The notes under the pieces are model-generated. The model saw nothing but the letters and a program-made list of their open reading frames with translations. It searched no databases and was not told the DNA's origin. 64,000 nucleotides of DNA from Bernardetiaceae bacterium (GTDB lineage Bacteria; Bacteroidota; Bacteroidia; Cytophagales; Thermoflexibacteraceae): NCBI GenBank assembly GCA_044348925.1, contig JBIKRY010000001.1, forward strand, positions 8,371-72,370, given 5' to 3'. Positions 1 through 57,257 of the stretch are shown in pieces (position 1 is the first letter of the stretch; the number at the start of each line of letters is the position of its first letter). The translations under genes were made by a program, and so were the position numbers.

Positions 1-2262
1 CCAAACAATAACTTGGATAGTATTTTGACAGGCAGAGTAAATTCGCTAAGACGTTTGAAAATTTTGGATATTAGCAGTAATAAATTAGATTTTGCTTCGG
101 TAGAGCCTTTTGTAGGACGTACTTTTACCTTTACCTACGACAAACAAGATAAAGTAGATAAAGAGGAGGAATATTTACTCTATGTTGGGCAATCTATCAA
201 CCTCAAAATAAAAACAGGAGGTACTCGTAATACCTATAAATGGACAAAAGATGGGGTAGATGTCTTTACTACTTTTACGCCTAACTTGCAAAAAAATACC
301 GTTACCATTGCAGATGCAGGGGTATATAGTGCCTTGATAACCAATAGCTTAGGTACAAATCTTACACTACAACGTAGAAATATCCGCCTGCGTGTAGTAG
401 GACAAATAGGTGGTTTAGATTCTATGATTTTGGTACAACTCAATGATTTATTAGGTGGACAAAATTGGATTAATAAATGGGACAGAACTAAACCTGTAGC
501 ACAATGGCATGGCGTAGAAATGGAAGGTACAAAAGTATTGAGTATCAATTTGGCAAATAATAACTTAGTCGGAAAATTACCTGATATTTTTGTATCTACA
601 GGAATTTTGTCGGATATTACATACCTTAATTTGTCGGGAAATGCTATTACAGGAACAATTCCTAAAACATTGGCAAATCTCAAAAAATTGCAATATTTAG
701 ACTTAAGTAAAAATTTATTGACAGGTGATATTATACCAGAACTTGCAACTTTGACAGATTTGCAAACTTTGTGGTTGTCGAGTAATCAATTTACAAGTAT
801 CAGTGCAGAAATTGGTAAATTAGCAAAATTACAAAATCTATTAGTCAATAATAACTTGCTAAAAACTTTGCCAAATGAACTAACAAACTTATTAGCATTG
901 CGTAAATTGAATATTGCAAATAATCAACTTACCGTGTTGCCAACAGGAATGGAAAAATTAGTAAATTTGCAATTATTGGATATTTCTAATAATTTATTGG
1001 ATATTTTGCCAAATATTTTTGCCAATATGCGAAATTTGACAGATTTCTATGCACAAAATAATTTATTCAAAGATTTGCCAGCAAGTTTAAGTACCTTAAA
1101 TACCTTACAAACTTTTGTAATACATTCTAATTTCTTAGATTTTGGAGATTTGGAAACTTTGCGAAATTTGGCGGTTATTAACACCACAGGTGCTATTTAT
1201 GAGCCACAAGATAAAGTAGATGTAGCACAGGATTTGTTGTTCAATCTTAGTCAATCTATAGTGTTGCGTGTTACTACTGCGGGTACGGCAAACCGTTATC
1301 AGTGGTTTAAAGACGGCATAGCTATTGGCGGGGCAACTTCGGCAACTTATACCAAAAATTTCCCAAATTTGGCGGACGCAGGAATTTATACCGTACAAAT
1401 AACTAATACGTTTACACAAAGATTGACATTGCTAAGACGAGATATATCGGTAAAAGTAGTTTGTGGAAATTCTAATAGTATTAGCTTATCTACACAAGGT
1501 ACAACCAGATACTGTGAAGGCGAAAAAATAAATACCACCATTGTATCTATGATTACAGATACAAAATTGCAAGCAAAAGCCTATCAATGGTTTATTAATG
1601 GCAATCGTTTGGCAGGTGAAGATAAACCAACCATTAATGTTATTCGAGAAGGAGAGTATAATGTGCAGATAACAGATGCAGAGGGTTGTGTCTATCAAGC
1701 TACAGAGCCAATGCGTATAGAATTGATAGCAAAACCAATCGTAAGCATAGTTTTGCAAACAGATAATGGCAATCAATTAATCAAATCAACCATTAGCAAT
1801 GTAAGCACCAATGTAAAAGTAGAGTGGTATGTATTGCCAATAAATTCGCAAATTGCACAGCAATTACAAGTTTCGCCAACAGCTACCGAAGTAAAACCAA
1901 TTATTGCAGGTACTTATTATGCAATAGTAACAGATGCAAAAGGTTGCCCAGCGAAATCTAATGTATTGGTTATCAACGTAGTAACAGGCATAGAAGAAGA
2001 TTTATTTGCACAACAGTTGCAAATATATCCAAATCCAAGTAATCGTTATTTTATGTTGCAAACCGATATTCCGCATAACGAATTAGCTTTGAAATTGGTA
2101 AATGCACTTGGACAAAACATAGAATTTGCTACAGATAGTGTAGCCGAAAAATTGCGAATAGATGTAGATAATTTGCCTTCGGGAGTGTATGTATTGGAAA
2201 TTACCAAAAAACAAGCAAATGGCAAGCTAATTACAGTCTATAAAAAATTGATTAAACAGTAA
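1..2262 (+). CDS. Secreted leucine-rich-repeat protein with Ig-like modules and a T9SS (Por) C-terminal sorting domain; 5' end lies outside the window
   Basis: The frame is open from base 1, with no stop before the TTG at 13. It has many LxxLxLxxNxL repeats (LQYLDLSKNLLTG, LRKLNIANNQLTVLP, LQLLDISNNLLDILP). Two copies of a module end in ADAGVYSALITN / ADAGIYTVQITN. The C-terminus IYPNPSNRYFML...GVYVLEITKK is the usual T9SS CTD pattern. Confidence 0.8.
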   Translation, partial: PNNNLDSILTGRVNSLRRLKILDISSNKLDFASVEPFVGRTFTFTYDKQDKVDKEEEYLLYVGQSINLKIKTGGTRNTYKWTKDGVDVFTTFTPNLQKNTVTIADAGVYSALITNSLGTNLTLQRRNIRLRVVGQIGGLDSMILVQLNDLLGGQNWINKWDRTKPVAQWHGVEMEGTKVLSINLANNNLVGKLPDIFVSTGILSDITYLNLSGNAITGTIPKTLANLKKLQYLDLSKNLLTGDIIPELATLTDLQTLWLSSNQFTSISAEIGKLAKLQNLLVNNNLLKTLPNELTNLLALRKLNIANNQLTVLPTGMEKLVNLQLLDISNNLLDILPNIFANMRNLTDFYAQNNLFKDLPASLSTLNTLQTFVIHSNFLDFGDLETLRNLAVINTTGAIYEPQDKVDVAQDLLFNLSQSIVLRVTTAGTANRYQWFKDGIAIGGATSATYTKNFPNLADAGIYTVQITNTFTQRLTLLRRDISVKVVCGNSNSISLSTQGTTRYCEGEKINTTIVSMITDTKLQAKAYQWFINGNRLAGEDKPTINVIREGEYNVQITDAEGCVYQATEPMRIELIAKPIVSIVLQTDNGNQLIKSTISNVSTNVKVEWYVLPINSQIAQQLQVSPTATEVKPIIAGTYYAIVTDAKGCPAKSNVLVINVVTGIEEDLFAQQLQIYPNPSNRYFMLQTDIPHNELALKLVNALGQNIEFATDSVAEKLRIDVDNLPSGVYVLEITKKQANGKLITVYKKLIKQ

Positions 2263-2386
2263 AAATAGCTGGTTTCTTTGAAGGGGTTATTGTTGCAAAA
2301 TGATGATACCTTCAAAGTAAATTAAATAAAAAGAGTAGCACAGTTTGTAAAAAAGTAGTAAAACAATTATCTTAATCATTTTATCT

Positions 2387-3292
2387 ATGTTATTATTTTC
2401 AACTGCCTCCTATGCCTATTTAAAGGATAAATTGTTGCAATATGCGGATTATTTTACTGAAGGAATTATTGAACATAAACAATTTCCTGATGGAGAAGAT
2501 TATTACCGCATTGTTTCAGACCTCAAGCAACAAGAAGTAGTATTGCTTGGTGGCACTATTTCGGACAAAAGCACTTTAGAATTATACGATTTAGCTTCGG
2601 GTTTGGTGCATTATGGGGCAAAAAAACTGACCATTGTAATTCCTTATTTTGGTTATTCTACCATGGAAAGGGCAGTAAAAACAGGCGAAATAGTAACCGC
2701 AAAAAATAGAGCTTTGTTGTTGTCTGCTATTCCTTCGGCACCTTATGGCAATCAAGTAATCATGATAGATTTGCATTCGGAGGGCATACCGCATTATTTT
2801 GCGAACAATCTACGAACTTATCATTTATATGCTAAGCCTATTATTATTGCATTGGCAAAAAAATTTGGTGGCAATGATTTTGTGTTTGCATCGACAGATG
2901 CAGGACGTGCCAAATGGGTAGAATCCTTAGCAAATGATATGCACGTACAAGCAGCATTTGTCTATAAACGGCGTACAAGTGGCAGTGAAACACAGGTAAC
3001 AGGCGTAAATGCAGACGTAAAAGACAAAACAGTAGTAATTTATGACGATATGATTCGCACAGGTGGCTCTCTTATCCAAGCAGCAAAAGCATATAAAGAA
3101 GCTGGTGCAAGCAAAATATATGTGATAACCACGCATGGAATTTTCCCTAATAATGCCATCGAGAGAATACAACAATCGGGGGTAATAGAAAAAGTAGCAG
3201 CAACAGACACTCACCCAAACGCCATACTTATGCAAAGTGATTTTTTGGAAATTGCATCTATTGCTGAATTGTTAAAAAATGCTTTGATTTAA
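2387..3292 (+). CDS. Ribose-phosphate diphosphokinase (PRPP synthetase) family protein, divergent paralogue
   Basis: It has the FPDGE motif, an IPYFGYS segment and the PRPP-binding loop VVIYDDMIRTGGSL. The canonical YARQDRK stretch reads YSTMERAVK, so I do not assign prs. Confidence 0.75.
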   Translation: MLLFSTASYAYLKDKLLQYADYFTEGIIEHKQFPDGEDYYRIVSDLKQQEVVLLGGTISDKSTLELYDLASGLVHYGAKKLTIVIPYFGYSTMERAVKTGEIVTAKNRALLLSAIPSAPYGNQVIMIDLHSEGIPHYFANNLRTYHLYAKPIIIALAKKFGGNDFVFASTDAGRAKWVESLANDMHVQAAFVYKRRTSGSETQVTGVNADVKDKTVVIYDDMIRTGGSLIQAAKAYKEAGASKIYVITTHGIFPNNAIERIQQSGVIEKVAATDTHPNAILMQSDFLEIASIAELLKNALI

Positions 3293-3308
3293 GGAATAGA
3301 AAGTTTAT

Positions 3309-3353
3309 TTTTTGATACTTTGTAAGTCTTAAAGGCTTGGAAAGTATCAAAAA
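3309..3353 (+). terminator. Stem-loop downstream of the PRPP synthetase-like gene
   Basis: tttttgatacttt (3309-3321) pairs perfectly with aaagtatcaaaaa (3341-3353). It lies 17 nt after the stop. Confidence 0.5.
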
Positions 3354-3373
3354 ATAACTTAAACTGCTTTTCA

Positions 3374-3424
3374 GAGTTTTCTTTCCAACCATTTCTGCAC
3401 AGTTTCATCAGCTAAGGCAATTTT
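3374..3424 (-). repeat. Displaced fragment of the leuS 3' coding region; direct repeat of 4829-4880
   Basis: 3383-3424 is identical over 42 nt to 4839-4880, with near-identity for about 10 more nt. The reverse-strand translation [14 protein letters not shown] matches the LeuRS C-terminal region and then stops (RKL*). Confidence 0.85.
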
Positions 3425-3505
3425 ATTCTAATTCATTGATTAAATCCTTTATTTCTTTGTCTGAAAGATTAGTAATTTCTGATTTATTGCAAATAGCAAG
3501 AATCT

Positions 3506-3713
3506 TTAACACGCATTTAGAAAATCTGTTAAAGTTTGGAGTTTTCTTTTTTCTTTGCGGGCTTTTCTTACTTCAATTATTCCATCTTTGATGCCTTGCA
3601 AGACTTCTATTTTTCTACGCAATTCGCCTAACTCTTGCATCAACCCATTCCAATAGAGGAATTTGAACAGCAACAGGCACACCTTCTGTGTTCGTAACAT
3701 ATTGTAAAGTCAT
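3506..3713 (-). pseudogene. Small antitoxin-like ORF split by an apparent 1-nt frameshift
   Basis: The ATG at 3713 opens MTLQYVTNTEGVPVAVQIPLLEW and then stops at 3615. The track ORF 3506-3700 continues in another frame as ...LMQELGELRRKIEVLQGIKDGIIEVRKARKEKRKLQTLTDFLNAC. The two join naturally at the GGG run near 3644. Confidence 0.4.
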
Positions 3714-3810
3714 AGCTTTAAGTTTTTACAAATTTACAAAAAACAGGAAAGTTTTGTAAGTAATTTCATAGGTTTTATTTTATAGAAAGATGCAATGATT
3801 AGATACAAAA

Positions 3811-4518
3811 CTAAGTATTTTTCAAATGTTCAGCTAATAAAGTTTCCAAATACGCTACGGCTTCGTGGGGAGTAGGAAATTCTTGATTTTGCTCGTCATA
3901 CTCAACTTTAAAACCTGTTTCACCTTTCACAAAAGTTGGTATTGGTATTTTTACACTTACTAAATAATTATTATTTTGTATAACTATGCTATAAGAATTT
4001 TCAACTGGGTGAGTGCCACTAAAAAGAGCTATATAGTTGAGATTTCCAGAACAACGAAATTGATAACATAAAGCAGAGTTACGGCATAATTCGTAAACAA
4101 TAAACATTCTTTTATAAGCATCTTCACCTGAATATTCAATATATTCTTTCATATTATAAAGTGTATTAGCCCAACTATAAATTTTAAAAGCATTTATCCC
4201 AAATTCCAAATAATACTCATATAAATCTGTAAATTGTATATCATCATTTGCAACTAAAATATCCTTAATTTCTACTCTGAAAATTAGCCATTGGTTTATC
4301 AAAAAGTTGATATTTTCTAAATAATCACCTTCATAGGTAGCTAAAACTATATTTTGTTCATAGAAAGAAATTTCTAAATAATTATTGCCATTGCTAAATT
4401 CACTTTTTTTTAGGTCAACTTTCCTATCTCCATTCTCCAATTCAACTGTATAAGTAACTTCTTTGGAATATTCCTTTATTGCTATTCCTTGTTCTTCAAA
4501 CCATTGTTTAGGTATCAT
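3811..4518 (-). CDS. Hypothetical protein (235 aa)
   Basis: A long uninterrupted ORF with no recognisable motif. It lies inside the 1.4-kb segment bracketed by leuS-fragment repeats. Confidence 0.55.
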   Translation of the reverse strand: MIPKQWFEEQGIAIKEYSKEVTYTVELENGDRKVDLKKSEFSNGNNYLEISFYEQNIVLATYEGDYLENINFLINQWLIFRVEIKDILVANDDIQFTDLYEYYLEFGINAFKIYSWANTLYNMKEYIEYSGEDAYKRMFIVYELCRNSALCYQFRCSGNLNYIALFSGTHPVENSYSIVIQNNNYLVSVKIPIPTFVKGETGFKVEYDEQNQEFPTPHEAVAYLETLLAEHLKNT

Positions 4519-4555
4519 AATTTATAATTTTGTTATGAATTAATTAGTTAATTTT

Positions 4556-4699
4556 GTGCCATTAGGCACTATATATTGGTAGAAAATGCTTAACCTCCTT
4601 CATTTTTTGCTCCGTTAGGAGCTACACATAGCTCATGACGGATAAGAAAGAGGAGGAGAGAATTATTTTTGCTACCAATATAGAGTTCCTAACGGAACA
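4556..4699. repeat. MITE-like element with ~33-bp imperfect terminal inverted repeats
   Basis: gtgccattaggcactatatattggtagaaaa (left) matches the reverse complement of tttttgctaccaatatagagttcctaacggaac (right). Each end is itself a small hairpin (gtgcc-atta-ggcac, gttcc-taac-ggaac). A third hairpin, gctccgttaggagc, lies inside. Confidence 0.6.
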
Positions 4700-4778
4700 A
4701 AAAAAAACACTACTTTTTAAAATCTAATTACCTAAAATACTTCGTAATTTCGTAATTAGTAATTTCGTAATTAAAAAA

Positions 4779-7751
4779 TTACACCACAACATTCACCACT
4801 TTTCCCACCACAATAATCACCTTTTTCGGAGTTTTCCCTTCCAACCATTTCTGCACAGTTTCATCAGCTAAGGCAATTTTTTCAATTTCTGCAACAGTCA
4901 AATCCAAAGAAAGTGTGAGTTTATGACGCATTTTTCCGTTGATAGAAACAGGATATTCAAAGCTACTTTCTACCAAATAACTTTCGTTACAAGTTGGAAA
5001 AGTGGCATTCATTACACTGTATTCTGCTTGCCAATTTTCGATATTTTGGTTTGGATATTGCAAAGCAAACCACAATTCCTCCACAATATGCGGTGCGTAA
5101 GGTGCAAGAATAACCAACAAATCAGCCAAAATTTGCTTTTTATAGCATTTTTGTTCTGTCAATTCATTCACACAAATCATAAATGTACTCACAGGCGTAT
5201 TGAACGAAAATCTTTCCATATCGTCCTCAATTTTCTTGATAGTTTTATGCAAAGTTTTCAATTCGTCTTTTGTTGGTGTGTCATCTGTAACTCTAAAATT
5301 ACCTTTGTCATCATAGAAAAGTCGCCAAAGTTTCTTCAAAAACTTGTGTGTACCATCAATTCCTTGCATATTCCAAGGCTTAAATTGTTCCAAAGGACCT
5401 AAAAACATTTCATACAACCGCAAAGTATCGGCACTATAACGGTTTACAACATCATCAGGATTTACGACATTATACCACCGTTTCGACATTTTTTCAACCG
5501 TATAACCGCAAACATATTTGCCATCTTCCATTTCAAATTCGGCATCTGCATATTCTGGTCGCCAAGCCTTAAATTTTTCCAAATCAAGCACATCATTCTC
5601 AACAATATTTACATCAACGTGCAATTCTTGAATGTTTGCAGCCTCATATTTATCTTTAAATTTCAGAGAAACAAATTTGTTGCTATCTTTCAATTTATAA
5701 ACAAAATTTGACCTACCTTGTATCATTCCTTGATTTATCAGCTTTTTGAAAGGCTCAACCGTCGAAACATAGCCCAAATCATACAAAAACTTGTTCCAAA
5801 ACCTGCTATATAACAAATGCCCTGTTCCGTGTTCAGCACCACCCACATATAAATCTACGGACTGCCAATAATTTTCTGCCTCTTTTGACACAAATTCTTT
5901 GTCATTTTTATTATCCATATATCGCAACCAATACCACGAAGAACCTGCCCAACCTGGCATGGTGCTAAGTTCGTATTCAAACCCAAGCCCCCCAGCCCCC
6001 GAAGGGGGAGTAACCCCCCAGCCCCCGAAGGGGGAGTTTGACGTTACAGCATCAGTTCCCCCTTCGGGGGTTAGGGGGCTATATTTCCAATTTGTTGCCC
6101 TTCCTAATGGTGGCTCACCGTTTTCTGTTGGTTTATATTGGTCTATTTCGGGCAATAACAAAGGCAATTCTTCATCAGAAAGTAGTTTTGGAATATTATT
6201 TTCGTCAAAATAAATTGGCACAGGTTCACCCCAATAGCGTTGTCTTCCAAAAACCGCATCACGCATTCTATAATTTGTTCTTGCAGTGCCAACTCCTTGA
6301 TTTTCAGCAAATTCAATAGCTTTTAAAATAGCTTCGTCTGTATCCAAACCATTTAAAAACCCAGAATTAACCATTTTACCATATTTTTTATCCGTAGGAT
6401 TTTCGAGTTCTTCCGCACCTTCAATCACATTGATAATTGGTAAATTGTATTGTTTTGCAAAACGAAAATCTCTGTCATCAGAACTTGGCACAGCCATTAC
6501 AACGCCTGTTCCATAACCTGCCAACACATAATCTGCTATCCAAACAGGGATTTTTTCGTTATTAAATGGATTTATGACGTAAGAACCTGTAAATACGCCT
6601 GTCGAAGTTTTGACTTCGGTCATTCTTTCTCTTTCACTACGGTTTGCTGCTTTTTCTACATATACTGCAACGGCTTGTTTTTGTTCTTCTGTTGTCAAAG
6701 TTGCCACCAATTCGTGTTCAGGTGCAATGGCAAGGTAAGTAACGCCAAAAGTTGTGTCAATACGAGTAGTGAAAACTTCTAAATACTCCCCAACGCCAAG
6801 CCCCCCAGCCCCCGAAGGGGGAGTTTTTGACGTTGTTTCGTCAGTTCCCCCTTCGGGGGTTAGGGGGCTAATTTTAAACCTCAATTCTGCCCCCAAACTT
6901 TTTCCTATCCAATTTCTTTGTATTTCTTTGATACTTTCCGACCATTCTATGGTGTCCAAATCATTCAATAATCTTTCAGCGTATGCAGTAATTCGCATCA
7001 TCCATTGACGCATTTTTTTACGTTCTACAGGATGTCCACCTCTTTCAGAAACTCCATCTTTCACCTCGTCATTTGCCAAAACAGAACCCAACGCAGGACA
7101 CCAATTCACAAAAGCATCTGCTAAATACGTTAAACGATATTGCAATAATTTATCAGATTTTTCTTTTGCCGAAAAGTTTTGCCATTCTGTTGCCGAAAAA
7201 ATTTGTGTATCTTCATCACAAGCTGCATCTACATTTGCATTGCCATTTTTCTCAAATTCAGCTACTAAAACACCAATATTTTCTGCTTTTTTGCTTTTAT
7301 TGTTATACCAAGATTCGAAAAGTTGTTTGAAAATCCATTGTGTCCATTTGTAATAATCAGGGCTTGAAGTGCGAATTTCCTTGTCCCAGTCATAACAAAA
7401 ACCTATTTTTCCTAATTGATTTTTGAAAGTGGCAATGTTATTTTCGGTAGTAATTTTTGGATGTTGCCCTGTTTCAATGGCGTATTGTTCGGCTGGCAAA
7501 CCAAAGGAATCGAAGCCCATTGGGTGCAAAACATTAAAGCCTTTTAGACGTTTGTAACGTGCAATAATGTCGGAGGCAATGTAGCCGAGAGGATGCCCAA
7601 CGTGCAAACCTGCCCCAGAAGGATAGGGAAACATATCAAGCACATAATATTTGGGCTTTTGGGTGTTGGTGCTAACTTTATACAGTTGCTTTTTTTGCCA
7701 AAGGTCTTGCCATTTGGTTTCTATGTTTTTGGGTGTATATTCTGCTGACAT
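4779..7751 (-). CDS. leuS: Leucine--tRNA ligase carrying two in-frame palindromic-element insertions
   Basis: It has the class I HIGH signature ([16 protein letters not shown]) and KMSKS (VEKMSKR), plus LeuRS-type architecture and the conserved tail [16 protein letters not shown]. The 990 aa include the foreign peptides [25 protein letters not shown] and [33 protein letters not shown]. Confidence 0.97.
5986..6080. repeat. G+C-rich palindromic element, composite copy (duplicated left arm), in frame within leuS
   Basis: agccccccagcccccgaagggggag occurs twice in tandem, followed by a spacer and the right arm ttcccccttcgggggttagggggct. Confidence 0.9.
6799..6869. repeat. G+C-rich palindromic element, canonical 71-bp copy, in frame within leuS
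   Basis: The arms agccccccagcccccgaagggggag and ttcccccttcgggggttagggggct are reverse complements with 3 mismatches in 25. Each arm holds a ccccc-gaa-ggggg mini-hairpin. G+C is about 63% by my count, in an AT-rich gene. Confidence 0.9.
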
Positions 7752-7883
7752 GAGTTTGTAATGTTAAAATAATTGTAACTTCGCAATAGAAATCTAACAT
7801 ACGCTTTAGCGTTGAGTTGATACATTCGAAACCACAAAACTATTCTAATTTATGAAAAAATACAATTTTATTTAAAAAATAAT

Positions 7884-7918
7884 AGGTTTTCTATCTCAAA
7901 GTTTTGAGACGAAAACCT
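7884..7918 (-). terminator. Nested stem-loop downstream of the PBP4-like gene
   Basis: aggttttc...gaaaacct forms the outer stem and tctcaaa/tttgaga the inner stem. A T-run follows on the minus strand. Confidence 0.45.
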
Positions 7919-7963
7919 AATTTATATATCTTTTATTGCTACAAGACAATAAATTTAGTGCTA

Positions 7964-9490
7964 TTAAAAATCTAATCCAGCCATTAAAACCATTATTTTT
8001 TCCATTCTTTTTACCATATCTGTACCTTTGCCACTATAATTATTTGCCATCATAGAAAAAACTAACTTTTCGCCACTTTTTGTCTGCACATACCCTGTAT
8101 AACAACGTACACGAGTCATAGAACCACTTTTTGCACGAATTTTGCCTTCGGCAACAGTATTTTTGCAAAGATTTCGGACTGTTCCACTCTCACCTACCAA
8201 AGGTAGAGATTGATAAAAAACAGGAAAATTAGCTTGCTTTGTTTGCAAGTGCATAATTCGGGTTAATTGTTCGGGCAAAATAGCATTAAAACGAGATAAA
8301 CCACTGCCATCTTCCATAAAAAAACCCTGCAAATTGATGCCTTTATTTTGCAAATACTCGGTAATCACTTGTACTCCTGCCTCCGTTGTTCCCTGCCCTG
8401 TGCGTTGATATGCCAAGATTCTCAAAAAATTTTCGGCATATAAATTAATGCTTTTATGATTGGTAACTCGTATAATTTCGGATAACGGTTCTGAATAGGT
8501 TGTGTAAAATTTTATGCGTTTAAGCGTAGAAATATCCTTTATTTTAGTAAACTCTTGGTAGGTAGTCGGAAATTGTAAAACTGTTATCTTATTGTAATAC
8601 AGTAAGTTATGCAAACTTGTAGCACAATATAAAGGCGGATTTGGAATTGCCCCTTTGAGTATAAAAGCTGTTTCATTGGGCGGAATAGTTCCCGAAAGAT
8701 TGCGAATATAGGTATCTGGTGAGCCATAAATTAGACTATTATCACCCGAGTTTTTTGCACCTGTCAAAATATTATTATAAAATGTTAAATTTTCTATAGG
8801 TGGATACACATTTTGAATACTTGTAGCATCACCCTCTTTATTTCCACTTTTCAAACGAATGTAGTAAAGATTTTCATGAAAAGATAAGCCATAACTACCT
8901 GCACCATAGCCACTTGCAACATCTTCCCAAACCCAACGATTATGCACTGCCTTATTATCAAAAATACTTTCGTCGGCAATAATACTACCTGTAATAGTTT
9001 TGATGCCTTGTTTCTCGATGGCATAAATCCACTCACAAAGCAATTTTTCTATGTTTTCGATAGCCAATGTAGGGTCTCCGCCACCTTTGATATAAATATT
9101 TCCATACAAAATGCTATCTTTAATTTCCCCATCATATTCCAAAATAGTTTCAAAACGAAAATCTTTGCCTAATAAATTTAGAGCAGTAGAGGTGCTAATT
9201 GTTTTCATTACCGAAGCTGTAGAAATACTTTGTTTAGCATTTTGGGATAGCAAAATACTATCTGCCGAAGCATACATAGCACAAAAACCAAAAGTTGCGT
9301 TTTGCATATCGGTTTCGGTCATCAACAAAGCTAAATGCTTTTGTAAAGAATCTTTAGCAACATTTCGCAAAGAATCTCGTAAGGAGGTTTTCAAAAAAAC
9401 AGTTTTTAAAGAATCTGCTACAGCTATTTTTTGGGCAAAGGAAATTTGCGTAAGACAAAGAAAGGAAAGAAAAAGAAAAATAATTTGCAT
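7964..9490 (-). CDS. dacB: D-alanyl-D-alanine carboxypeptidase/endopeptidase (PBP4, peptidase S13 family)
   Basis: It has an SxxK motif (ASVMK), and its length and overall pattern fit PBP4. An N-terminal signal peptide is present. I prefer the ATG at 9490 because the TTG at 9532 lies inside the serS terminator hairpin. Confidence 0.8.
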   Translation of the reverse strand: MQIIFLFLSFLCLTQISFAQKIAVADSLKTVFLKTSLRDSLRNVAKDSLQKHLALLMTETDMQNATFGFCAMYASADSILLSQNAKQSISTASVMKTISTSTALNLLGKDFRFETILEYDGEIKDSILYGNIYIKGGGDPTLAIENIEKLLCEWIYAIEKQGIKTITGSIIADESIFDNKAVHNRWVWEDVASGYGAGSYGLSFHENLYYIRLKSGNKEGDATSIQNVYPPIENLTFYNNILTGAKNSGDNSLIYGSPDTYIRNLSGTIPPNETAFILKGAIPNPPLYCATSLHNLLYYNKITVLQFPTTYQEFTKIKDISTLKRIKFYTTYSEPLSEIIRVTNHKSINLYAENFLRILAYQRTGQGTTEAGVQVITEYLQNKGINLQGFFMEDGSGLSRFNAILPEQLTRIMHLQTKQANFPVFYQSLPLVGESGTVRNLCKNTVAEGKIRAKSGSMTRVRCYTGYVQTKSGEKLVFSMMANNYSGKGTDMVKRMEKIMVLMAGLDF

Positions 9491-9511
9491 AGAGATAAGG
9501 GTAAAAATTAA

Positions 9512-9548
9512 CAATACTTTCCAAATCTTCAAAACTTGGAAAGTATTG
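9512..9548 (-). terminator. Stem-loop downstream of serS
   Basis: caatactttccaa (9512-9524) pairs perfectly with ttggaaagtattg (9536-9548). Confidence 0.5.
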
Positions 9549-9559
9549 TACTGATTATG

Positions 9560-10834
9560 TTAATTAATCATTGCAAAACCTGTATAAGGTTGTAATACTT
9601 TAGGGATTTTGATTCCTTCTGGAGTTTGGTTATTTTCTAACAAAGCAGCTAAGATACGAGGTAATGCTAATGCACTGCCATTTAAGGTATGTAACAACTG
9701 CGTTTTGCCATCATTTTCTTTGTAACGTAATTTCATACGATTGGCTTGGAAAGTTTCAAAATTACTTACCGAACTAACTTCTAACCATCGTTGTTGTGCT
9801 GCCGAATATACTTCCATATCATAACACAAAGCTGCACCAAAACTAATATCACCTCCACATAGACGCAAAACTCTATAAGGTAATTCCAATTTTTGCAAAA
9901 TAGCTTGAATGTATTTAGACATTTCTTCTAAGGTTTCATAGGAATTTTCGGGTTTTTGAATCTGCACAATTTCTACTTTATCAAATTGGTGCAAACGGTT
10001 TAATCCTCGCACATGTGCACCCCACGAGCCTGCTTCGCGTCTAAAACAGGGTGTGTATCCCACATTTTTGATAGGCAAATCTTTGGCTTGTTGTATGGTA
10101 TCTCGATAGAGATTAGTAATAGGCACTTCGGCGGTTGGAATCAAATATAATTCGTCTTCAGTAGCAAAATACATCTGCCCTTCTTTATCGGGCAGTTGTC
10201 CTGTACCATAACCAGAATCTCGATTAATTAAAATAGGTGGTTGCACTTCTATATAACCTGCTTGTATTGCTTCATCTAAAAAGAAATTTATCATAGCACG
10301 TTGCAACCTTGCCCCTTTGCCTTTATAGACAGGAAAACCAGCACCAGTAATTTTTACCCCCAATTCAAAATCTATAATATCATATTTTTTGATAAGTTCC
10401 CAATGTGGCAATGCGTCTGCGGGAAGTTCGGTAATTGTGCCATTTTCCAACACAATTTCATTGTCGTCTGCTCCAAGCCCTTCAGGCACAGAACTATGTG
10501 GCAAATTAGGCAATAAATATAAATGTTGCGTTAATTGATTGTCTAAATCTGCAAATTCGATATCTAAGTTTTTGGATAAGTTTTTCAAATCTGCACTTTG
10601 TTTACGAAATTCCTCTGCTTCTGCTTTTTTCCCTACTTTCATTAAATTACCAACTTCTTTGGCTAAAGCATTTGCTTGGGCATTGCTTTGGTCTAACTTA
10701 ACTTGAGTTTCTCTACGTTTACTATCTATTTCTAAAATTTTTTCGACAGCTTCGGCAGCATTTTTTACTCTTTTTTTTGTAAGACCTTGAATGGTTAGGT
10801 CTTTATTTTCTCTAATAAAAGAAATTTGTAACAT
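9560..10834 (-). CDS. serS: Serine--tRNA ligase
   Basis: It has the N-terminal coiled-coil arm and class II core motifs (CFRREAGS, GSALALPRILAALLEN). The start MLQISFIREN at 10834 is typical for SerRS. Confidence 0.95.
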   Translation of the reverse strand: MLQISFIRENKDLTIQGLTKKRVKNAAEAVEKILEIDSKRRETQVKLDQSNAQANALAKEVGNLMKVGKKAEAEEFRKQSADLKNLSKNLDIEFADLDNQLTQHLYLLPNLPHSSVPEGLGADDNEIVLENGTITELPADALPHWELIKKYDIIDFELGVKITGAGFPVYKGKGARLQRAMINFFLDEAIQAGYIEVQPPILINRDSGYGTGQLPDKEGQMYFATEDELYLIPTAEVPITNLYRDTIQQAKDLPIKNVGYTPCFRREAGSWGAHVRGLNRLHQFDKVEIVQIQKPENSYETLEEMSKYIQAILQKLELPYRVLRLCGGDISFGAALCYDMEVYSAAQQRWLEVSSVSNFETFQANRMKLRYKENDGKTQLLHTLNGSALALPRILAALLENNQTPEGIKIPKVLQPYTGFAMIN

Positions 10835-10986
10835 AGATTTACGTTTTTTTTGTGCAAATATGTAAAAAAAATAGCAATTTTTAATTATCAAATACTTTTT
10901 TTTAGAGTTTATGTTTCAAAATCTTATTTTGAAACATAAACTAATTTGGTAATTATTTTAATTATTGAGGCGGAAAACCTATTATT

Positions 10987-11766
10987 TTATTTCCAAAAAG
11001 GAATTCCTGCGAGTGCCTGTAACATGGTGAAATTTACGAAAATAAAGTACAAAATAGCAAATACCCAAACTATTTGAATAGCTAATTTTTCGGCAACTAA
11101 TTTAGTAGTTAGATAAGCAAATAAGGGGATAATTTGCAAGGCATGAATTCCAAAAAAATGTGCAATCCGCAAATCTCCAAATAATTTGCTCCAATTCAAA
11201 AAAACAATACCTTCTGTGCCATCTACTGCCCCAACTGTGTGTCCTGCTTGTTGCGAAATATATGCACCAAAAAAACTGAATAAGGTAAAATAAACCAAAC
11301 CAAATCGAATACCCAAAAGATAAGGTGCTGCAATGTTAAAAGATTTTTGTTTGAAATATTGTATGCTTATGTGTAGTGTCCAAATAGTCAAGCTAAGAAT
11401 AAAAACTCCCATTAAGGCATATAATACTATTCCAAAGGTGGAAGTATTGTTAAAATGTGATTTTTCGCCTCGCAATGCTTGTATAATAATAGCTGTTTGC
11501 TCAAAACTCATTGCAATTACCACCACCCAGCTATAGGTTAGTACCTGTTTTTTATCTGCCAAATATGCCAACAAATATGCCATTGTCCAGCTATATATCC
11601 AAATACTCAATGCAAATTTGATGGGTTTTATTAACGAATTTAAACCCAAAACTTCTACAGAATTGAAAGGCATAGCAATAGCCAGTAAGATAAATAATAG
11701 CAAATGAATAGTTCCTAAATTTGCTAAAATCGTATTTCTTTGATAAATTTCTCTTAAGATGTGCAT
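10987..11766 (-). CDS. Multi-pass integral membrane protein, function unknown
   Basis: 259 aa with about 7 hydrophobic segments and no catalytic motif recognised. Confidence 0.65.
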   Translation of the reverse strand: MHILREIYQRNTILANLGTIHLLLFILLAIAMPFNSVEVLGLNSLIKPIKFALSIWIYSWTMAYLLAYLADKKQVLTYSWVVVIAMSFEQTAIIIQALRGEKSHFNNTSTFGIVLYALMGVFILSLTIWTLHISIQYFKQKSFNIAAPYLLGIRFGLVYFTLFSFFGAYISQQAGHTVGAVDGTEGIVFLNWSKLFGDLRIAHFFGIHALQIIPLFAYLTTKLVAEKLAIQIVWVFAILYFIFVNFTMLQALAGIPFWK

Positions 11767-11915
11767 AAAAAAAGTATAAAAATTTATTTACAAACATAGC
11801 CAAAAATAGCTATGACTTTGTTGATAAAAGTCAATAAATCTATCTTCTATAGGAAGGGCAGTATATGCTTGTTATGTAACTTAGATTACCGAGTACAAAT
11901 GCACCACGCACAGAA

Positions 11916-12452
11916 TTAAATTTCTTTTGCCATTGCCCAATCTACATACCTTGTTGTCCCAAGATAAAAAATATATTCCCCAGAAATCGTAAAGCCCATT
12001 TTGTGGTAAAAATTAATAGCTTTTGCATTATCTTTCCAAACACAAAGCCATAATAAGTTTATCTCTTGTTTTTGTGCTTCTGTTTCAATTTCTGTAAGTA
12101 ATTTTTGTCCAATTTGTTGTCCGTGCAAAGCCTTTGTAATATAAATGCGTGCTATTTCCAAACAGTTTTTATCTCGTAAATTTGCAGGGGTAAGATTGGC
12201 ATCTTTTCGAAGTTTTGCATAGCCAACTGCCTGTCCTTCATGTTCCATAATTTTGTAATAAATCAATGGAAATAGTGTTATTTCATTAGCAATTTGTACT
12301 TCATTAAAATGTGTAGCCACGTATTGCAAAATATTTTCATCAGTGTCTGTTCCCCAATAAGTATCTATAAAAGTGCTTTTGCTTAGGTTAGCAAGCAAAG
12401 TTACATCTTCGATAGTGGCTGTTCGAATCGTACTATTTTTAGCTATTGTCAT
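11916..12452 (-). CDS. GNAT-family N-acetyltransferase
   Basis: The acetyl-CoA binding pattern is HGQQIGQKLL followed by NAKAINFYHKMGF. The ATG at 12452 (MTIAKNSTIRTATIEDV) removes an AT-rich upstream extension. Confidence 0.8.
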   Translation of the reverse strand: MTIAKNSTIRTATIEDVTLLANLSKSTFIDTYWGTDTDENILQYVATHFNEVQIANEITLFPLIYYKIMEHEGQAVGYAKLRKDANLTPANLRDKNCLEIARIYITKALHGQQIGQKLLTEIETEAQKQEINLLWLCVWKDNAKAINFYHKMGFTISGEYIFYLGTTRYVDWAMAKEI

Positions 12453-12722
12453 TATTTTATTGTAGGTGAAATTAAGAATGTAATATAATTTGTTTAGTAA
12501 ATGTGTATTTGTCTTTAGACGAATGAACGTAGAAAATTGAAACAAAAAACGCAGTTCCGAGCCAAATTTACTATTTTATACAAACAACATCAAATTAGCC
12601 AAAAAAACATAAAATTTTAGCTAATTTATTACCTTTTTTAAAATTTCTCCAATTTCATTTCAAACTTGATTCTAAGAATTAAGTCTTTTATCTATTAATT
12701 ACAAAAAAATGTTATTTTTTTG

Positions 12723-52819: not shown

Positions 52820-55800
52820 ATGAAAATATTTTTTTGTTATTTAGCTTTATTTTTCTTCAACACAATTGTTTTTGCACAAGTTTATCCATTCAAAACCTAT
52901 GCAATAGAACAGGGTTTGCCACAATCTGAAATTTGGGATATGATGTCAGATAGTCGTGGCTATTTGTGGATAGGCACAAATGGTGGCGGACTTACCAAGT
53001 TTAATGGCAAAACTTTTCAAACTTTTACCAAAAAAGATGGACTACCAAACGAACAAGTAAGCAATCTTATAGAGGATAAAAAAGGCAATATTTGGGCTAT
53101 GACTTTTAATGGCTTGTCCTATTATGACGGAATCAGTTTTAAAACTTATGACGAATCCGATGGTATTCAAGTAGTAAATTCGCCTTTTGCAAATTTTGCG
53201 GTAGATGAACAAAATACACTATGGTTTCTAAGTTTTGCTCAACAAAATACTATTTTGTATCTATTTGAAAATCAAAAGTTTATAGAAGCAAAAACCAAAT
53301 TTCCTATCCTCGCAGACTATTTTATTGTACGGCTCTATGCAAATAAAAAGTGCATTTTTATTAATGCAATACATACCCAAACAGGTAAAACTACGTTATT
53401 CCAATACCAAAAAGGACAACTTAGTACCTACCAAAATCCTACAATACCTGTAGCAAATGGAGAAAGTTTGTGTCCTTTTTTTACACATAGCAACGGAGAT
53501 ATATGGGCTGGAATTTTTAAATTTGCTCCTAATCAAGTTGTTAATATCCTTAAAATATATAAAATTTCGCCACAAGGGCAAGCTACTGAATTACCTTGTC
53601 CAGAAAATGTACCAATATTTGCAATCAATAGAGTAGCAGAAGACAAATTTAAGCATGTATGGTTACCTCTTAGCAATTTTCAAGGCAATTTGAATGGTAA
53701 TGCCATTTGGAAATATGATTTGGCAGGAAAAGTTACTACACTTTCCGAAAAAAATGGCTTAGCTACTGTATTTATTGTCAATAGTGTAGCAGATAAAGAT
53801 GGAAATATTTGGCTTGGAACTCGTGGATTTGGCTTAATCAAATATTTAGGGGAAACTTTTACTGCCATCAATCAATCTTTAGGTATGCAACAAGAAGTTA
53901 CACGAACTTTTTATAAAGATAAAGCTGGGGTTATCTGGATTGGAACAGTTGCCAATGAACTCTATGCATGGAATGGAAAAGAATTAAAAACCTATCCTGC
54001 AAATATTCCCATAGGAAGAATTATGAAAATAGAGCCTGAAGAAAATGGTAATTTATTGTTGGCTACTAATACGGGTATTGTTCGTTTTAATCAAGGCAAA
54101 TTTAGCAATGTCAATCAAGAGTTTGGAATTCCTGCTACTGTTGCACAAGTTTCTTATTTATTGCACACCAAAGATGATATTTGGTGGATTGTTACACAAG
54201 GCACAGGTTTGTATCGGTATGATTCTAAAACCAAAACAACTACACAATATAATGTAGCAAATAAAAAATTAGCAAATAATGGTTTATATTCTGTTTTTGA
54301 GGACAGCAAAGGAAGTATTTGGGTAAATTCTAATGCAGGCGTGCATAGAATAGAAAAAAAAGGAATTTTGCAAAACGAAGAAGAGAAAATTACACTATTT
54401 GACCGAAGTAAAGGACTTGGAGAAAGTTTAACCCAACAAACCACAGAAGATAAAAATGGAAATATTTGGGTTACTACGTTTGGTGGTGGTTTGGCACGTT
54501 TTGATGGCACAAAGTTTATTAGCTATACCAAAGAAAACTCTGATTTATCTTCTAATTTAATTTATTCTATTACTACAGATGCTAATGGAGATATTTGGGC
54601 AGGTATGCAAGGTGGCGTAGCTAAATTGGAAGTAGATGCCAAAAGTGAAGTTAGCAAAATTACTAATTATGCAGATAATCAAGGGTTTACAGGCAAAGAA
54701 ACCAACGGTGCAGCTATTTACAAAGACGATGAAAATAATATGTGGTTTGGCACACTAAAAGGTGCTTACAAATATAATCCTACCTTCGACCAACCAAACA
54801 CCAACCAACCAATAGCCAATATTACTGCCATAAGATTATTTTTTAAGCCCGTAAAATGGCAGGAAGAACCCTATAAACAATATTTTTTAGAGCCTACAAA
54901 ATGGTTTATACAAGTGCCACAAAATTTGGTATTGCCCTACAACGAGAATCACATAGCTTTTGATTTGGAAGCAGTACAGTTTGACAATCCTGATGAGGTA
55001 GAATTTCAGTGGAAACTCGAAGGCATAGACACAGATTGGACTCCTGCCATTCAGAAACAAGAAGCTATTTACCCAAATTTGCCTCCAAATACCTATACTT
55101 TTAAGCTAAGGGCTGGCTTACAAGGAAATTGGGGAGAAACCACTACCTATACCTTTACCATTACGCCGCCTTGGTGGCAAACTTGGTGGTTTATTACTTT
55201 GTGTGTGTTGTCCATTTCTGCCATCATTTACTCCTTTATACGCATACGCCTACAAGCAATTAAGGAAAGACAAGCAGAATTAGAAAAATTAGTATTTGAA
55301 AAAACCGCAGAAGTACGCCAACAAAATACCGAAATTTTGGCACAAACACAGGTTTTACAACACGCAAATAGCGAAATTATTAGACAAAGTGAACTTTTGG
55401 CACATAAAAACAGAGATATTACTGCAAGTATTACCTATGCCAAACGGATTCAAACGGCTATGTTGCCTACAGAAACAGATATTCAAAAAACATTTCCAGA
55501 TTCTTTTGTATTATTTCAACCAAAAGATATTGTAAGTGGAGATTTTTACTATTTTGAAAATATTATAGATAAAAATGCTATTGAAATTAGTGTTTTAGCT
55601 GCCATAGATTGCACAGGGCATGGCGTACCAGGTGCTTTTATGTCGATGATTGGTAATGATTTGCTCAATCATATTATTTTGGAAAAAGAAATTCACAGCC
55701 CAAATTTAATTCTCGAAGAACTCAACAAAGGAGTACGCAAATTATTAAAACAAGCCGAAAATAAAGTACGTGATGGAATGGATTTGAGTTTGGTAACAGT

Positions 55801-56179
55801 TGATAAAACAAATAAAATACTACAATTTGCAGGGGCAATGAACCCAATTTATTACCTACAAAACGGCATATTTTATGAAATTAAAGGCACAAAAAGCCCT
55901 ATTGGTGGATACCAAGATGGAGAAAATGTATATGCAATGCACCAAATAGAACTGCATACCAAAACTACATTTTATCTTTGCACAGATGGTTTTCAAGACC
56001 AATTTAGTGAAACAGGGAAAAAATTTATGGTGCGAAAATTTAGAGAATTACTATTACATATACATTTGTTGCAGATGCAAGCACAAAAAGCAACACTTCA
56101 ACATACAGTAAGTAATTGGCTTGGAAATGGAAAACAAATAGATGATATTTTGGTAATGGGAGTTTGTGTAGAAATATAG
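52820..56179 (+). CDS. Sensor phosphatase: periplasmic two-component-regulator propeller repeats + Y_Y_Y-like domain + TM + coiled coil + PP2C/SpoIIE phosphatase
   Basis: A signal peptide is followed by repeated G..WIGT..GL..YD/FNG blocks. There is one TM segment (WWFITLCVLSISAIIYSFI). The C-terminal SpoIIE-type motifs are SGDFYYF, DCTGHGVPGAFMS and LCTDGFQDQF. The ATG at 52820 is preferred. Confidence 0.8.
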   Translation: MKIFFCYLALFFFNTIVFAQVYPFKTYAIEQGLPQSEIWDMMSDSRGYLWIGTNGGGLTKFNGKTFQTFTKKDGLPNEQVSNLIEDKKGNIWAMTFNGLSYYDGISFKTYDESDGIQVVNSPFANFAVDEQNTLWFLSFAQQNTILYLFENQKFIEAKTKFPILADYFIVRLYANKKCIFINAIHTQTGKTTLFQYQKGQLSTYQNPTIPVANGESLCPFFTHSNGDIWAGIFKFAPNQVVNILKIYKISPQGQATELPCPENVPIFAINRVAEDKFKHVWLPLSNFQGNLNGNAIWKYDLAGKVTTLSEKNGLATVFIVNSVADKDGNIWLGTRGFGLIKYLGETFTAINQSLGMQQEVTRTFYKDKAGVIWIGTVANELYAWNGKELKTYPANIPIGRIMKIEPEENGNLLLATNTGIVRFNQGKFSNVNQEFGIPATVAQVSYLLHTKDDIWWIVTQGTGLYRYDSKTKTTTQYNVANKKLANNGLYSVFEDSKGSIWVNSNAGVHRIEKKGILQNEEEKITLFDRSKGLGESLTQQTTEDKNGNIWVTTFGGGLARFDGTKFISYTKENSDLSSNLIYSITTDANGDIWAGMQGGVAKLEVDAKSEVSKITNYADNQGFTGKETNGAAIYKDDENNMWFGTLKGAYKYNPTFDQPNTNQPIANITAIRLFFKPVKWQEEPYKQYFLEPTKWFIQVPQNLVLPYNENHIAFDLEAVQFDNPDEVEFQWKLEGIDTDWTPAIQKQEAIYPNLPPNTYTFKLRAGLQGNWGETTTYTFTITPPWWQTWWFITLCVLSISAIIYSFIRIRLQAIKERQAELEKLVFEKTAEVRQQNTEILAQTQVLQHANSEIIRQSELLAHKNRDITASITYAKRIQTAMLPTETDIQKTFPDSFVLFQPKDIVSGDFYYFENIIDKNAIEISVLAAIDCTGHGVPGAFMSMIGNDLLNHIILEKEIHSPNLILEELNKGVRKLLKQAENKVRDGMDLSLVTVDKTNKILQFAGAMNPIYYLQNGIFYEIKGTKSPIGGYQDGENVYAMHQIELHTKTTFYLCTDGFQDQFSETGKKFMVRKFRELLLHIHLLQMQAQKATLQHTVSNWLGNGKQIDDILVMGVCVEI

Positions 56180-56568: not shown

Positions 56569-56672
56569 GTACCAATACTTTATAAAACCAATCCTTTTAT
56601 TTGCAAATTTGCAAATATGGCATTTTCTACTTAAAACGTACTATTTTTACTTATACCTATTTGCATAATACA

Positions 56673-57257
56673 ATGACCGAAAAAACGGAAAGATATACTA
56701 ACAGCGAAAAAAACACCATTTTCAACAAAGAATTTATGCCGCATTTAACGGCAATGTATAATTTTGCCTACAAACTTGCTTTAGATGAAGACGATGCAAA
56801 AGATTTGGTACAAGATACCTATATGAAGGCATTTAGATTTATTAATTCTTTTGAACAAGGCACAAATGCAAAGGCGTGGCTATTCAAAATTCTTAAAAAT
56901 GGTTTTATTAACGAATTTCGCAAGAAAAGTAAGCAACCCGCAAAAGTAGATTACCAAGAAGTAGAACAAACTTACAATTCTGATTATATAGACGAAGATT
57001 TTACGATGGATCTTCGTTCCGAGTCTGTCCAAGATTTGATAGGGGACGAAATTACCAATGCACTCAATTCTTTGAGTATAGAATTTCGTGCTATCATTAT
57101 TTTGTGTGATTTGGAAGGGTTTACGTATGAAGAATTGGCAAAAATTCTCGATATTCCTATCGGAACTGTCCGTTCACGATTGCATAGAGCAAGGTTTGTT
57201 CTTAAGCAAAAACTATCTGTTTATGCAAAAAAAATGGGTTATCCAACAGAAGCATAA
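56673..57257 (+). CDS. ECF-type RNA polymerase sigma-70 family factor
   Basis: Region 2 is DLVQDTYMKAFRFINSF...AWLFKILKNGFINEFRK. Region 4 is FRAIIILCDLEGFTYEELAKILDIPIGTVRSRLHRAR. Confidence 0.85.
   Translation: MTEKTERYTNSEKNTIFNKEFMPHLTAMYNFAYKLALDEDDAKDLVQDTYMKAFRFINSFEQGTNAKAWLFKILKNGFINEFRKKSKQPAKVDYQEVEQTYNSDYIDEDFTMDLRSESVQDLIGDEITNALNSLSIEFRAIIILCDLEGFTYEELAKILDIPIGTVRSRLHRARFVLKQKLSVYAKKMGYPTEA

Follow-up and report, generated by a model that had tools for sequence, protein, structure and literature searches.

Insertion with long target duplication is known from restriction-modification (R-M) gene units (Nobusato et al. 2000 as cited in Furuta, Abe and Kobayashi 2010, PMC2853133). 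These units are shorter than 20 kb, carry a long unique direct repeat of variable length (>30 bp) and no mobility genes, and their repeat can overlap the 3' end of a gene (PMC2853133); R-M cargo defines the published survey, not the mechanism. In a Bernardetiaceae bacterium, we found that part of the 3' end of leuS, the gene for leucyl-tRNA synthetase (LeuRS), is repeated downstream of the gene, and that the two copies bracket a short islet of accessory DNA. The locus lies in a window of 64,000 nucleotides (contig C3:8371-72370) of a 4.67-Mb draft assembly in 458 contigs (G000), and positions given below without a contig are those of the window. In our reading, the leuS locus is a worn case of long-target-duplication insertion, or gene-end displacement, a pattern that has already been published. 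We hold with moderate confidence that the downstream copy, here called the relic, is the worn remnant of an earlier leuS end that was left behind when a cassette inserted without a recombinase, probably by homologous recombination.

Like R-M long target duplications, the leuS islet is a short unit with a unique direct repeat and no mobility genes. In contrast to them, its cargo is a toxin-antitoxin-like pair and an orphan gene with no R-M genes, the whole of its repeat falls within the coding end of an essential gene, one repeat copy is eroded and no empty leuS site was found; the genus, moreover, has arrays of several relics, and the genes adjoining them look co-transferred. Displacement of a 3' end has also been described at rhs, cdiA and type VI secretion system (T6SS) effector-immunity loci, where homology-facilitated illegitimate recombination was proposed (Kirchberger et al. 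2017, PMC5361080; Jackson et al. 2009 as cited there). The loci reported here share with these a conserved upstream anchor, an old end displaced downstream, arrays that grow by repetition and the lack of an integrase. However, what is displaced at rhs, cdiA and T6SS loci is a variable toxic tip, accompanied by its immunity gene as cargo, whereas at leuS the tail of a housekeeping gene, conserved in sequence, is displaced by cargo that has no relation to leuS.

In icd of E. coli, phage 21 and the element e14 supply a substitute 3' end and leave the original end as a pseudogene fragment at the far junction; each of them brings an integrase gene of its own and recombines at a fixed att core. The leuS islet resembles them in that a metabolic gene is kept whole by a substitute end and differs in that no integrase was found. 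In a model that Oliveira and colleagues are said to have put forward in 2017, accessory genes turn over beside core genes with raised recombination, in hotspots free of mobile elements. The arms in that model are the core genes on either side, and no duplicated gene end is made, in contrast to the leuS islet, which has one.

The repeated leuS end

leuS (990 aa, with Pfam leucyl-tRNA synthetase domains) occupies 4779-7751 on the minus strand, and its working tail with the stop codon lies at 4779-4838. Directly upstream of this tail, 42 nt of the gene (4839-4880, minus strand) recur at 3383-3424 with 42/42 nt identical, so that the copies stand 1,456 nt apart from start to start and form a direct repeat of >30 bp around an insert of <20 kb. 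Beyond the exact block the similarity weakens: 46/48 nt (96%) match between 3377-3424 and 4833-4880, BLAST pairs 3368-3434 with 4823-4889 at 91% identity, and, when one 1-nt gap is allowed, homology can be traced down to ~3364 (~61 nt recognisable), where it ends. The relic (3364-3424, minus strand) is made up of 42 nt with 0 differences and then of ~22 nt with ~4 differences (~80%, with the gap in 3364-3382), the latter a very short stretch. The first-pass annotation of this DNA had described an exact 42-nt duplication with a weaker extension of ~20 nt, and a downstream copy that is translated briefly and then terminates; alignment and BLAST agree with the first point, and the minus-strand translation of the relic, which reads 14 residues in the leuS frame and then RKL and a stop, agrees with the second. 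The relic ends 44 nt ahead of the stop position and lacks the final ~40 nt of the tail as well as the stop codon. In the working gene, the last 19 LeuRS residues are the conserved C-terminus of the family (29 relatives compared). The relic also carries an ACT codon of G000 where the congeners G003 and G002 have ATT.

The 42-mer is present in exactly two copies in the whole G000 assembly and both derive from leuS, which rules out a dispersed repeat unrelated to the gene. In 100 dinucleotide-preserving shuffles of the window, none produced a comparable repeat match (0/100). A draft genome in 458 contigs does invite the suspicion of a chance match or an assembly artefact; however, in addition to the shuffles, 42 nt is probably below common assembly word sizes, the flanks of the two copies differ and the same layout is seen at ~20 loci and in other genomes, and we regard this explanation as extremely improbable.

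Candidate displaced gene ends across the genus

We scanned the gene ends of G000 genome-wide, first with exact words and then by BLAST searches with the terminal 200 nt of each of 2,519 long open reading frames (ORFs). The exact words gave 12 loci at which a gene end is repeated downstream, and BLAST gave 26 candidate genes with a displaced 3' end, of which ~20 are convincing. In these ~20 genes, the last 30-145 nt are repeated 0.3-8 kb downstream. The class includes metH, mutS, acnA, serA, fadB, a carboxyltransferase gene, an alpha-2-macroglobulin gene, an OmpA-family gene and an M1 peptidase gene, and its members outside the window lie on contigs C292, C446, C65, C132, C352, C354/C184, C452, C135, C83, C195, C35, C67, C243, C297, C221 and C99. 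Six or seven of the genes are followed by arrays of 2-4 relics. Relics nearly always run through the stop codon and sometimes through the terminator as well, and the cargo between gene and relic consists mostly of toxin-antitoxin or defence genes (HEPN/MNT, PIN, ParE, GmrSD, PBECR3).

To read the polarity of these insertions, we compared G000 with its congeners G001, G002 and G003; all genomes compared are fragmented drafts. The serA site is unoccupied in G003, and the DNA that follows the relic in G000 is there continuous with serA, with an overlap that equals the 45-nt repeat. The terminator and the next gene in G003 match the relic's side and not the side of the working tail, and the two G000 copies are identical to each other while both differ from the copy in G003. 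At the carboxyltransferase gene, where the G003 site is less occupied, the gene leads directly into the DNA that lies behind the third relic of G000, and at fadB, which is in the window, the G003 counterpart is also less occupied and lacks the GmrSD cassette. These comparisons show that gene 3' ends of this genus do take up cassettes in this manner and that the relic, together with the DNA downstream of it, is the native setting at serA, at the carboxyltransferase gene and at fadB. Hence new cassettes come in at the working end, and the older ends are moved outward. Since the distal copy is the original end at these three genes, it is plausible by analogy that the working leuS tail, too, came with the insert.

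Arrays of relics also lie behind metH in G003 (C9:4438-18467) and in G002 (C11, locus 2300-10640), where toxin-antitoxin and defence cassettes are divided by copies of the last ~110 nt of metH. Their cargo comprises PIN_2, ParE, MNT/HEPN, HTH/M78, PBECR3, ThiF/JAB and Uma2 genes and a caspase-WG protein, and the PIN_2, ParE and HEPN genes stop right at the start of a relic (..TAA directly followed by GTATTTCGG). At serA and fadB, the joint between cassette and relic likewise falls within a few bases of the stop codon of the last cargo gene. Some metH relics keep both ends and have a replaced middle. The edge of the metH relic is identical in up to eight relics across three genomes, relic edges vary by up to ~50 nt at the alpha-2-macroglobulin and carboxyltransferase genes, and leuS has one relic. 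No motif is common to all relic edges: mutS and serA share AATACGATT, and metH and fadB share AGTATTT, and we rejected a common joint motif because these are pairwise coincidences only.

Neither the ORF list nor Pfam and NCBIfam profile searches that took in all window ORFs from 1 to 9532 gave a recombinase, an integrase, a transposase or any further gene for mobility within the leuS islet or next to it, as the first-pass annotation had noted for recombinases, and there is no tRNA gene near the islet. No integrase was seen among the cargo ORFs that were checked at ten other loci. These results bear on classical site-specific integration, in which an island with an integrase and an attP that copies the leuS end would have recombined through a 42-nt core and later lost the integrase and most of its length. 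An identical core with a diverged tail beyond it, the constant metH relic edge and the tandem arrays, which are typical of repeated use of a regenerated att site, would all fit such a history. In contrast, it would need a tyrosine or serine recombinase where none was found at leuS or in the checked cargo; the G002 metH array, which is bounded, has no ORF of integrase length except a TPR protein, although not all of its small ORFs were searched; ~20 target genes have no obvious joint motif in common; and the similarity of whole neighbouring genes to their G003 counterparts is left unexplained. We consider integration of this kind distinctly unlikely.

Two other sources of the repeats were set aside. 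The first gene after metH in G003 and G002 is an IS200-like Y1_Tnp gene, and this gene and the metH joint GTAA suggested insertion by an IS200/IS605-type Y1 transposase next to TTAC. This is not supported, since leuS has no such site and the mechanism makes no duplication; G000 has one weak Y1_Tnp match, on another contig. A diversity-generating retroelement was rejected because there is no reverse transcriptase among the Pfam-searched ORFs and the mismatches are not adenine-specific.

The islet and its neighbourhood

Read on the minus strand from leuS, the islet holds the working tail, a 15-nt tandem repeat, a palindromic element resembling a miniature inverted-repeat transposable element (MITE), a 235-aa ORF (orf235), an antitoxin-like gene and the 29-codon end of a toxin gene. 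Its GC content is 0.287, as compared to 0.330 for the genome. The 15-nt tandem repeat (4741-4773) lies just behind the leuS stop codon and has a shorter version in G003. The MITE-like element (4538-4704) has 35-nt arms at 4552-4586 and 4668-4702 that are 86% complementary; it has one relative, on contig C452 of G000, and the same position is occupied in G003. Rfam has no family for the element, and neither a known RNA family nor a tRNA was found as the target.

The cargo gene orf235 (3811-4518, minus strand) is an orphan that falls into no family of Pfam, NCBIfam or PADLOC. In a set of 5.8 billion protein sequences, its family has 6 members (orf235 and five relatives), and among 201 genomes of the order it was found in G000, in G003 and as one marginal match (E=8e-4). 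The first 33 and last 24 residues of the 6 proteins are near-invariant, whereas identity in the middle is 43-83%. The proteins of G000 and G003 are 47% identical, with ~90-92% identity in the DNA flanks and 52-64% in the middle, as if the core had been swapped. The AlphaFold model of orf235 is poor (predicted local distance difference test, pLDDT, 59).

The antitoxin-type gene (3506-3713, minus strand; RelB-like, 70 aa) is disrupted by a deletion of 5 nt; homologues that are intact, also of 70 aa, share 86-96% identity with it and read EWEKLMQEL where the window has EW-G-LMQEL. Its read-through matches PF18506 (RelB-like) weakly (E=0.0097, 16.2 bits, under the cut-off of 27). Behind it, a 29-codon frame (3426-3512, minus strand) can be aligned to the C-termini of toxins encoded directly after antitoxin homologues in G002 and in a further genome, G011. 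The fragment itself is too short for a family match, and the G002 toxin homologue matches PF06296 (RelE) with E=1e-4 and 23 bits, also under the cut-off of 27. Gene order and overlap fit a type II pair, with both family matches sub-threshold. The RelE-like toxin gene has lost its first ~70-95 codons through an internal deletion; the possibility that the frame is a toxin N-terminus cut at a random fragment end was rejected, as it aligns as a C-terminal end with a natural stop codon. That stop codon, at 3423-3425, takes in the two bases with which the relic begins, which is the same build as in the metH arrays of G003 and G002. The first-pass annotation had listed the tail, the MITE-like element, the 235-aa ORF and the antitoxin-like ORF correctly; it had described the antitoxin-like ORF as frameshifted, where the break is a deletion of 5 nt and not of a single base, and it had not listed the toxin end.

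Two further antitoxin-like genes were observed. An intact distant homologue (40%) lies at C138:12932-13135 in G000, ~470 nt downstream of another class I aminoacyl-tRNA synthetase gene (9688-12462). A second copy in G003 (C358:132-1042) is also broken, by a 1-nt insertion, and the toxin gene beside it has 18 N-terminal codons left, which are joined to the beginning of a gene resembling those for lipoproteins.

On the far side of the relic, 6 nt separate it from a terminator hairpin resembling a repetitive extragenic palindrome (REP; 3305-3357, 26-nt arms), a member of a dispersed family with copies on many contigs of G000, G001 and G002; a hairpin of similar sequence stands at the far edge of the G003 islet. 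The hairpin precedes prs (ribose-phosphate pyrophosphokinase; 2387-3292, plus strand; Pfam Pribosyltran_N, Pribosyl_synth and Pribosyltran). The gene ahead of prs in G002 is the orthologue of window positions 56601-57257, and G001 has a similar link to 55419-56058. Because these prs partners lie 53 kb from prs in G000 (window 55.4-57.3 kb), the prs side of the scar is a lineage-specific rearrangement joint. Gene order is heavily scrambled in the genus, and consecutive G000 window genes mostly match different G003 contigs. G003 itself carries leuS, the MITE-like element, the homologue of orf235 and an antitoxin gene of which the initial 15-19 nt are present, beyond which it has unrelated hairpins and a type IX secretion system (T9SS) cargo gene. 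Among the relatives compared, none that lacks orf235 was found to carry both copies of the 42-mer.

A repeat beside a rearrangement joint might also have arisen with no insertion at all, by local duplication and deletion or as filler DNA at an illegitimate joint when prs moved in. The prs-leuS adjacency is specific to G000, the gene order of the genus is scrambled and the relic is truncated close to the hairpin, which would fit such an origin. In contrast, the relic begins exactly at the stop codon of the last cassette gene, as at metH and, within a few bases, at serA and fadB, two genes for which comparison shows insertion; an accident would not give this layout again. We judge such an origin very unlikely.

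Probable exchange with G003 and a proposed route of entry

Outside GC-rich palindromic inserts, leuS is 95-99% identical to its G003 counterpart, and the flanks of the islet are 87-92% identical. In contrast, ~45 other matches between the window and G003 are 67-89% identical, with fadB (94%) as the single exception; for comparison, prs is 81% and rpoB 86% identical. Genes of the displaced-end class are also close to G003, at least in their 3' parts: mutS 96-97%, acnA 91%, serA 92% and the carboxyltransferase gene 96%. metH is 92% identical to G003 and 92-96% in G002, and the alpha-2-macroglobulin gene rises from 85% to 95% along its length and reaches 97% in its cargo. Judged from these identities, the whole leuS gene and not just its tail looks recently exchanged with the G003 lineage, and leuS, as the anchor gene, would have been co-transferred with the cargo.

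The in-frame GC-rich palindromic inserts of leuS (5500-5700, 6000-6099 and 6800-6899) are the only parts that differ strongly from G003 (54-79% with gaps), and because identity drops there, these inserts turn over faster than the gene. Elsewhere in G000, gyrB (C247:21798-25094) encodes 1,098 aa, and its middle ~430 codons have no DNA match in G001 or G002 and are shared with G003 at 91%; this stretch may represent an intein, or some other insert whose flanks were co-converted. The class I aminoacyl-tRNA synthetase gene at C138:9688-12462 is a mosaic as compared to G003, with 97%, 79% and 94% identity along its length.

For the leuS islet, we propose that a small cassette entered leuS 102 nt before the stop codon. 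It would have comprised the 15-nt repeat, the MITE-like element, orf235, a RelB/RelE-type pair and its own copy of a leuS end, which would have kept the essential gene whole while the resident end was displaced downstream. The route would be ordinary homologous recombination, in which the body of leuS served as the long arm and, as the short arm, the gene-end copy at the far edge of the cassette paired with the leuS end of the recipient. A hybrid relic would be expected from such pairing, with 42 nt like the incoming allele and then ~20 nt of the old allele. Later, the toxin gene would have been inactivated by its internal deletion, the antitoxin-like gene would have decayed, and the rearrangement that brought in prs would have cost the relic its final ~40 nt. 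If the two 42-mers recombined now, the resulting LeuRS would end ...WLERKL, without the conserved last residues; because this would truncate the conserved end, the islet can probably no longer be cleanly lost.

A true long target duplication, in which staggered breaks in the recipient's leuS gave rise to both copies and no donor tail was brought in, was the original proposal for R-M units. It would account for a 42-nt block that is identical and has the G000-specific codon in both copies, and for serA copies that are identical to each other and distinct from that of G003; the pattern has been published (PMC2853133). In contrast, neither the ~80% stretch past the 42-mer nor the near-identity of the whole of leuS to G003 would follow from it, nor would metH relics (79-98% identity) that travel with cassettes between species, and we think it unlikely.

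Several points weigh against the homologous entry of a cassette with its own leuS end. We found no empty leuS site in G001-G003 and 29 relatives compared for leuS; prs and leuS are not neighbours in G001-G003, and two metagenome scans found no closer relatives or population variants. Two suggestions of the first-pass annotation stand in part. That the leuS 3' end served as an integration site with target duplication is backed by the leuS-derived two-copy bracket around low-GC accessory DNA and by the same layout at serA, the carboxyltransferase gene and fadB, where the G003 site is unoccupied or holds less; that the LeuRS tail was supplied by the inserted DNA is plausible by analogy with these three genes. 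The second copy of the repeat was not found in G003, where the islet ends at antitoxin codon 6 and keeps the leuS-proximal part alone. The leuS relic stops 44 nt short, unlike nearly all other relics, and because it ends earlier than usual we read it as eroded. The difference between 0/42 and ~4/22 may reflect just two or three mutation events, and gene conversion could be an alternative source of the perfect 42-nt block. Neither the fixed metH relic edge nor stop codons exactly at the joints are predicted by random joints, and together they could point to some site-specific step. Genes outside the class can show an excess of identity to G003 as well, namely gyrB (91%) and a part of a further aminoacyl-tRNA synthetase gene (97%), and we softened an earlier formulation that only relic-bearing genes pass 90% to G003. 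Finally, fragmented drafts leave room for chimeric contigs.

A more specific possibility, which we raise tentatively, is that gene-end copies act as the right-hand homology arm of a recombinase-free cassette system. A double crossover wholly within one conserved gene, in which the gene body is one arm and the relic, paired with the recipient's own tail, is the other, would then move cassette and relic between species without shared gene order; or else an enzyme acting in trans would set the joints on stop codons. Active arms of this kind would explain the co-transferred look of neighbouring genes, the hybrid relic at leuS, the native DNA after relics, the stacked arrays and the ~20 docking genes.

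Taken as a displaced gene end, the leuS repeat would be one more footprint of a little-studied, integrase-free entry of small defence and toxin-antitoxin cassettes. This genus offers ~20 sites, arrays shared between species, occupied and unoccupied versions of sites, and housekeeping genes that look co-transferred, and because of this setting a mechanism that has been open since 2000 becomes approachable by comparison and by transformation experiments. If our reading of leuS is right, the allele of an essential tRNA synthetase can hitch-hike across species with a cassette.

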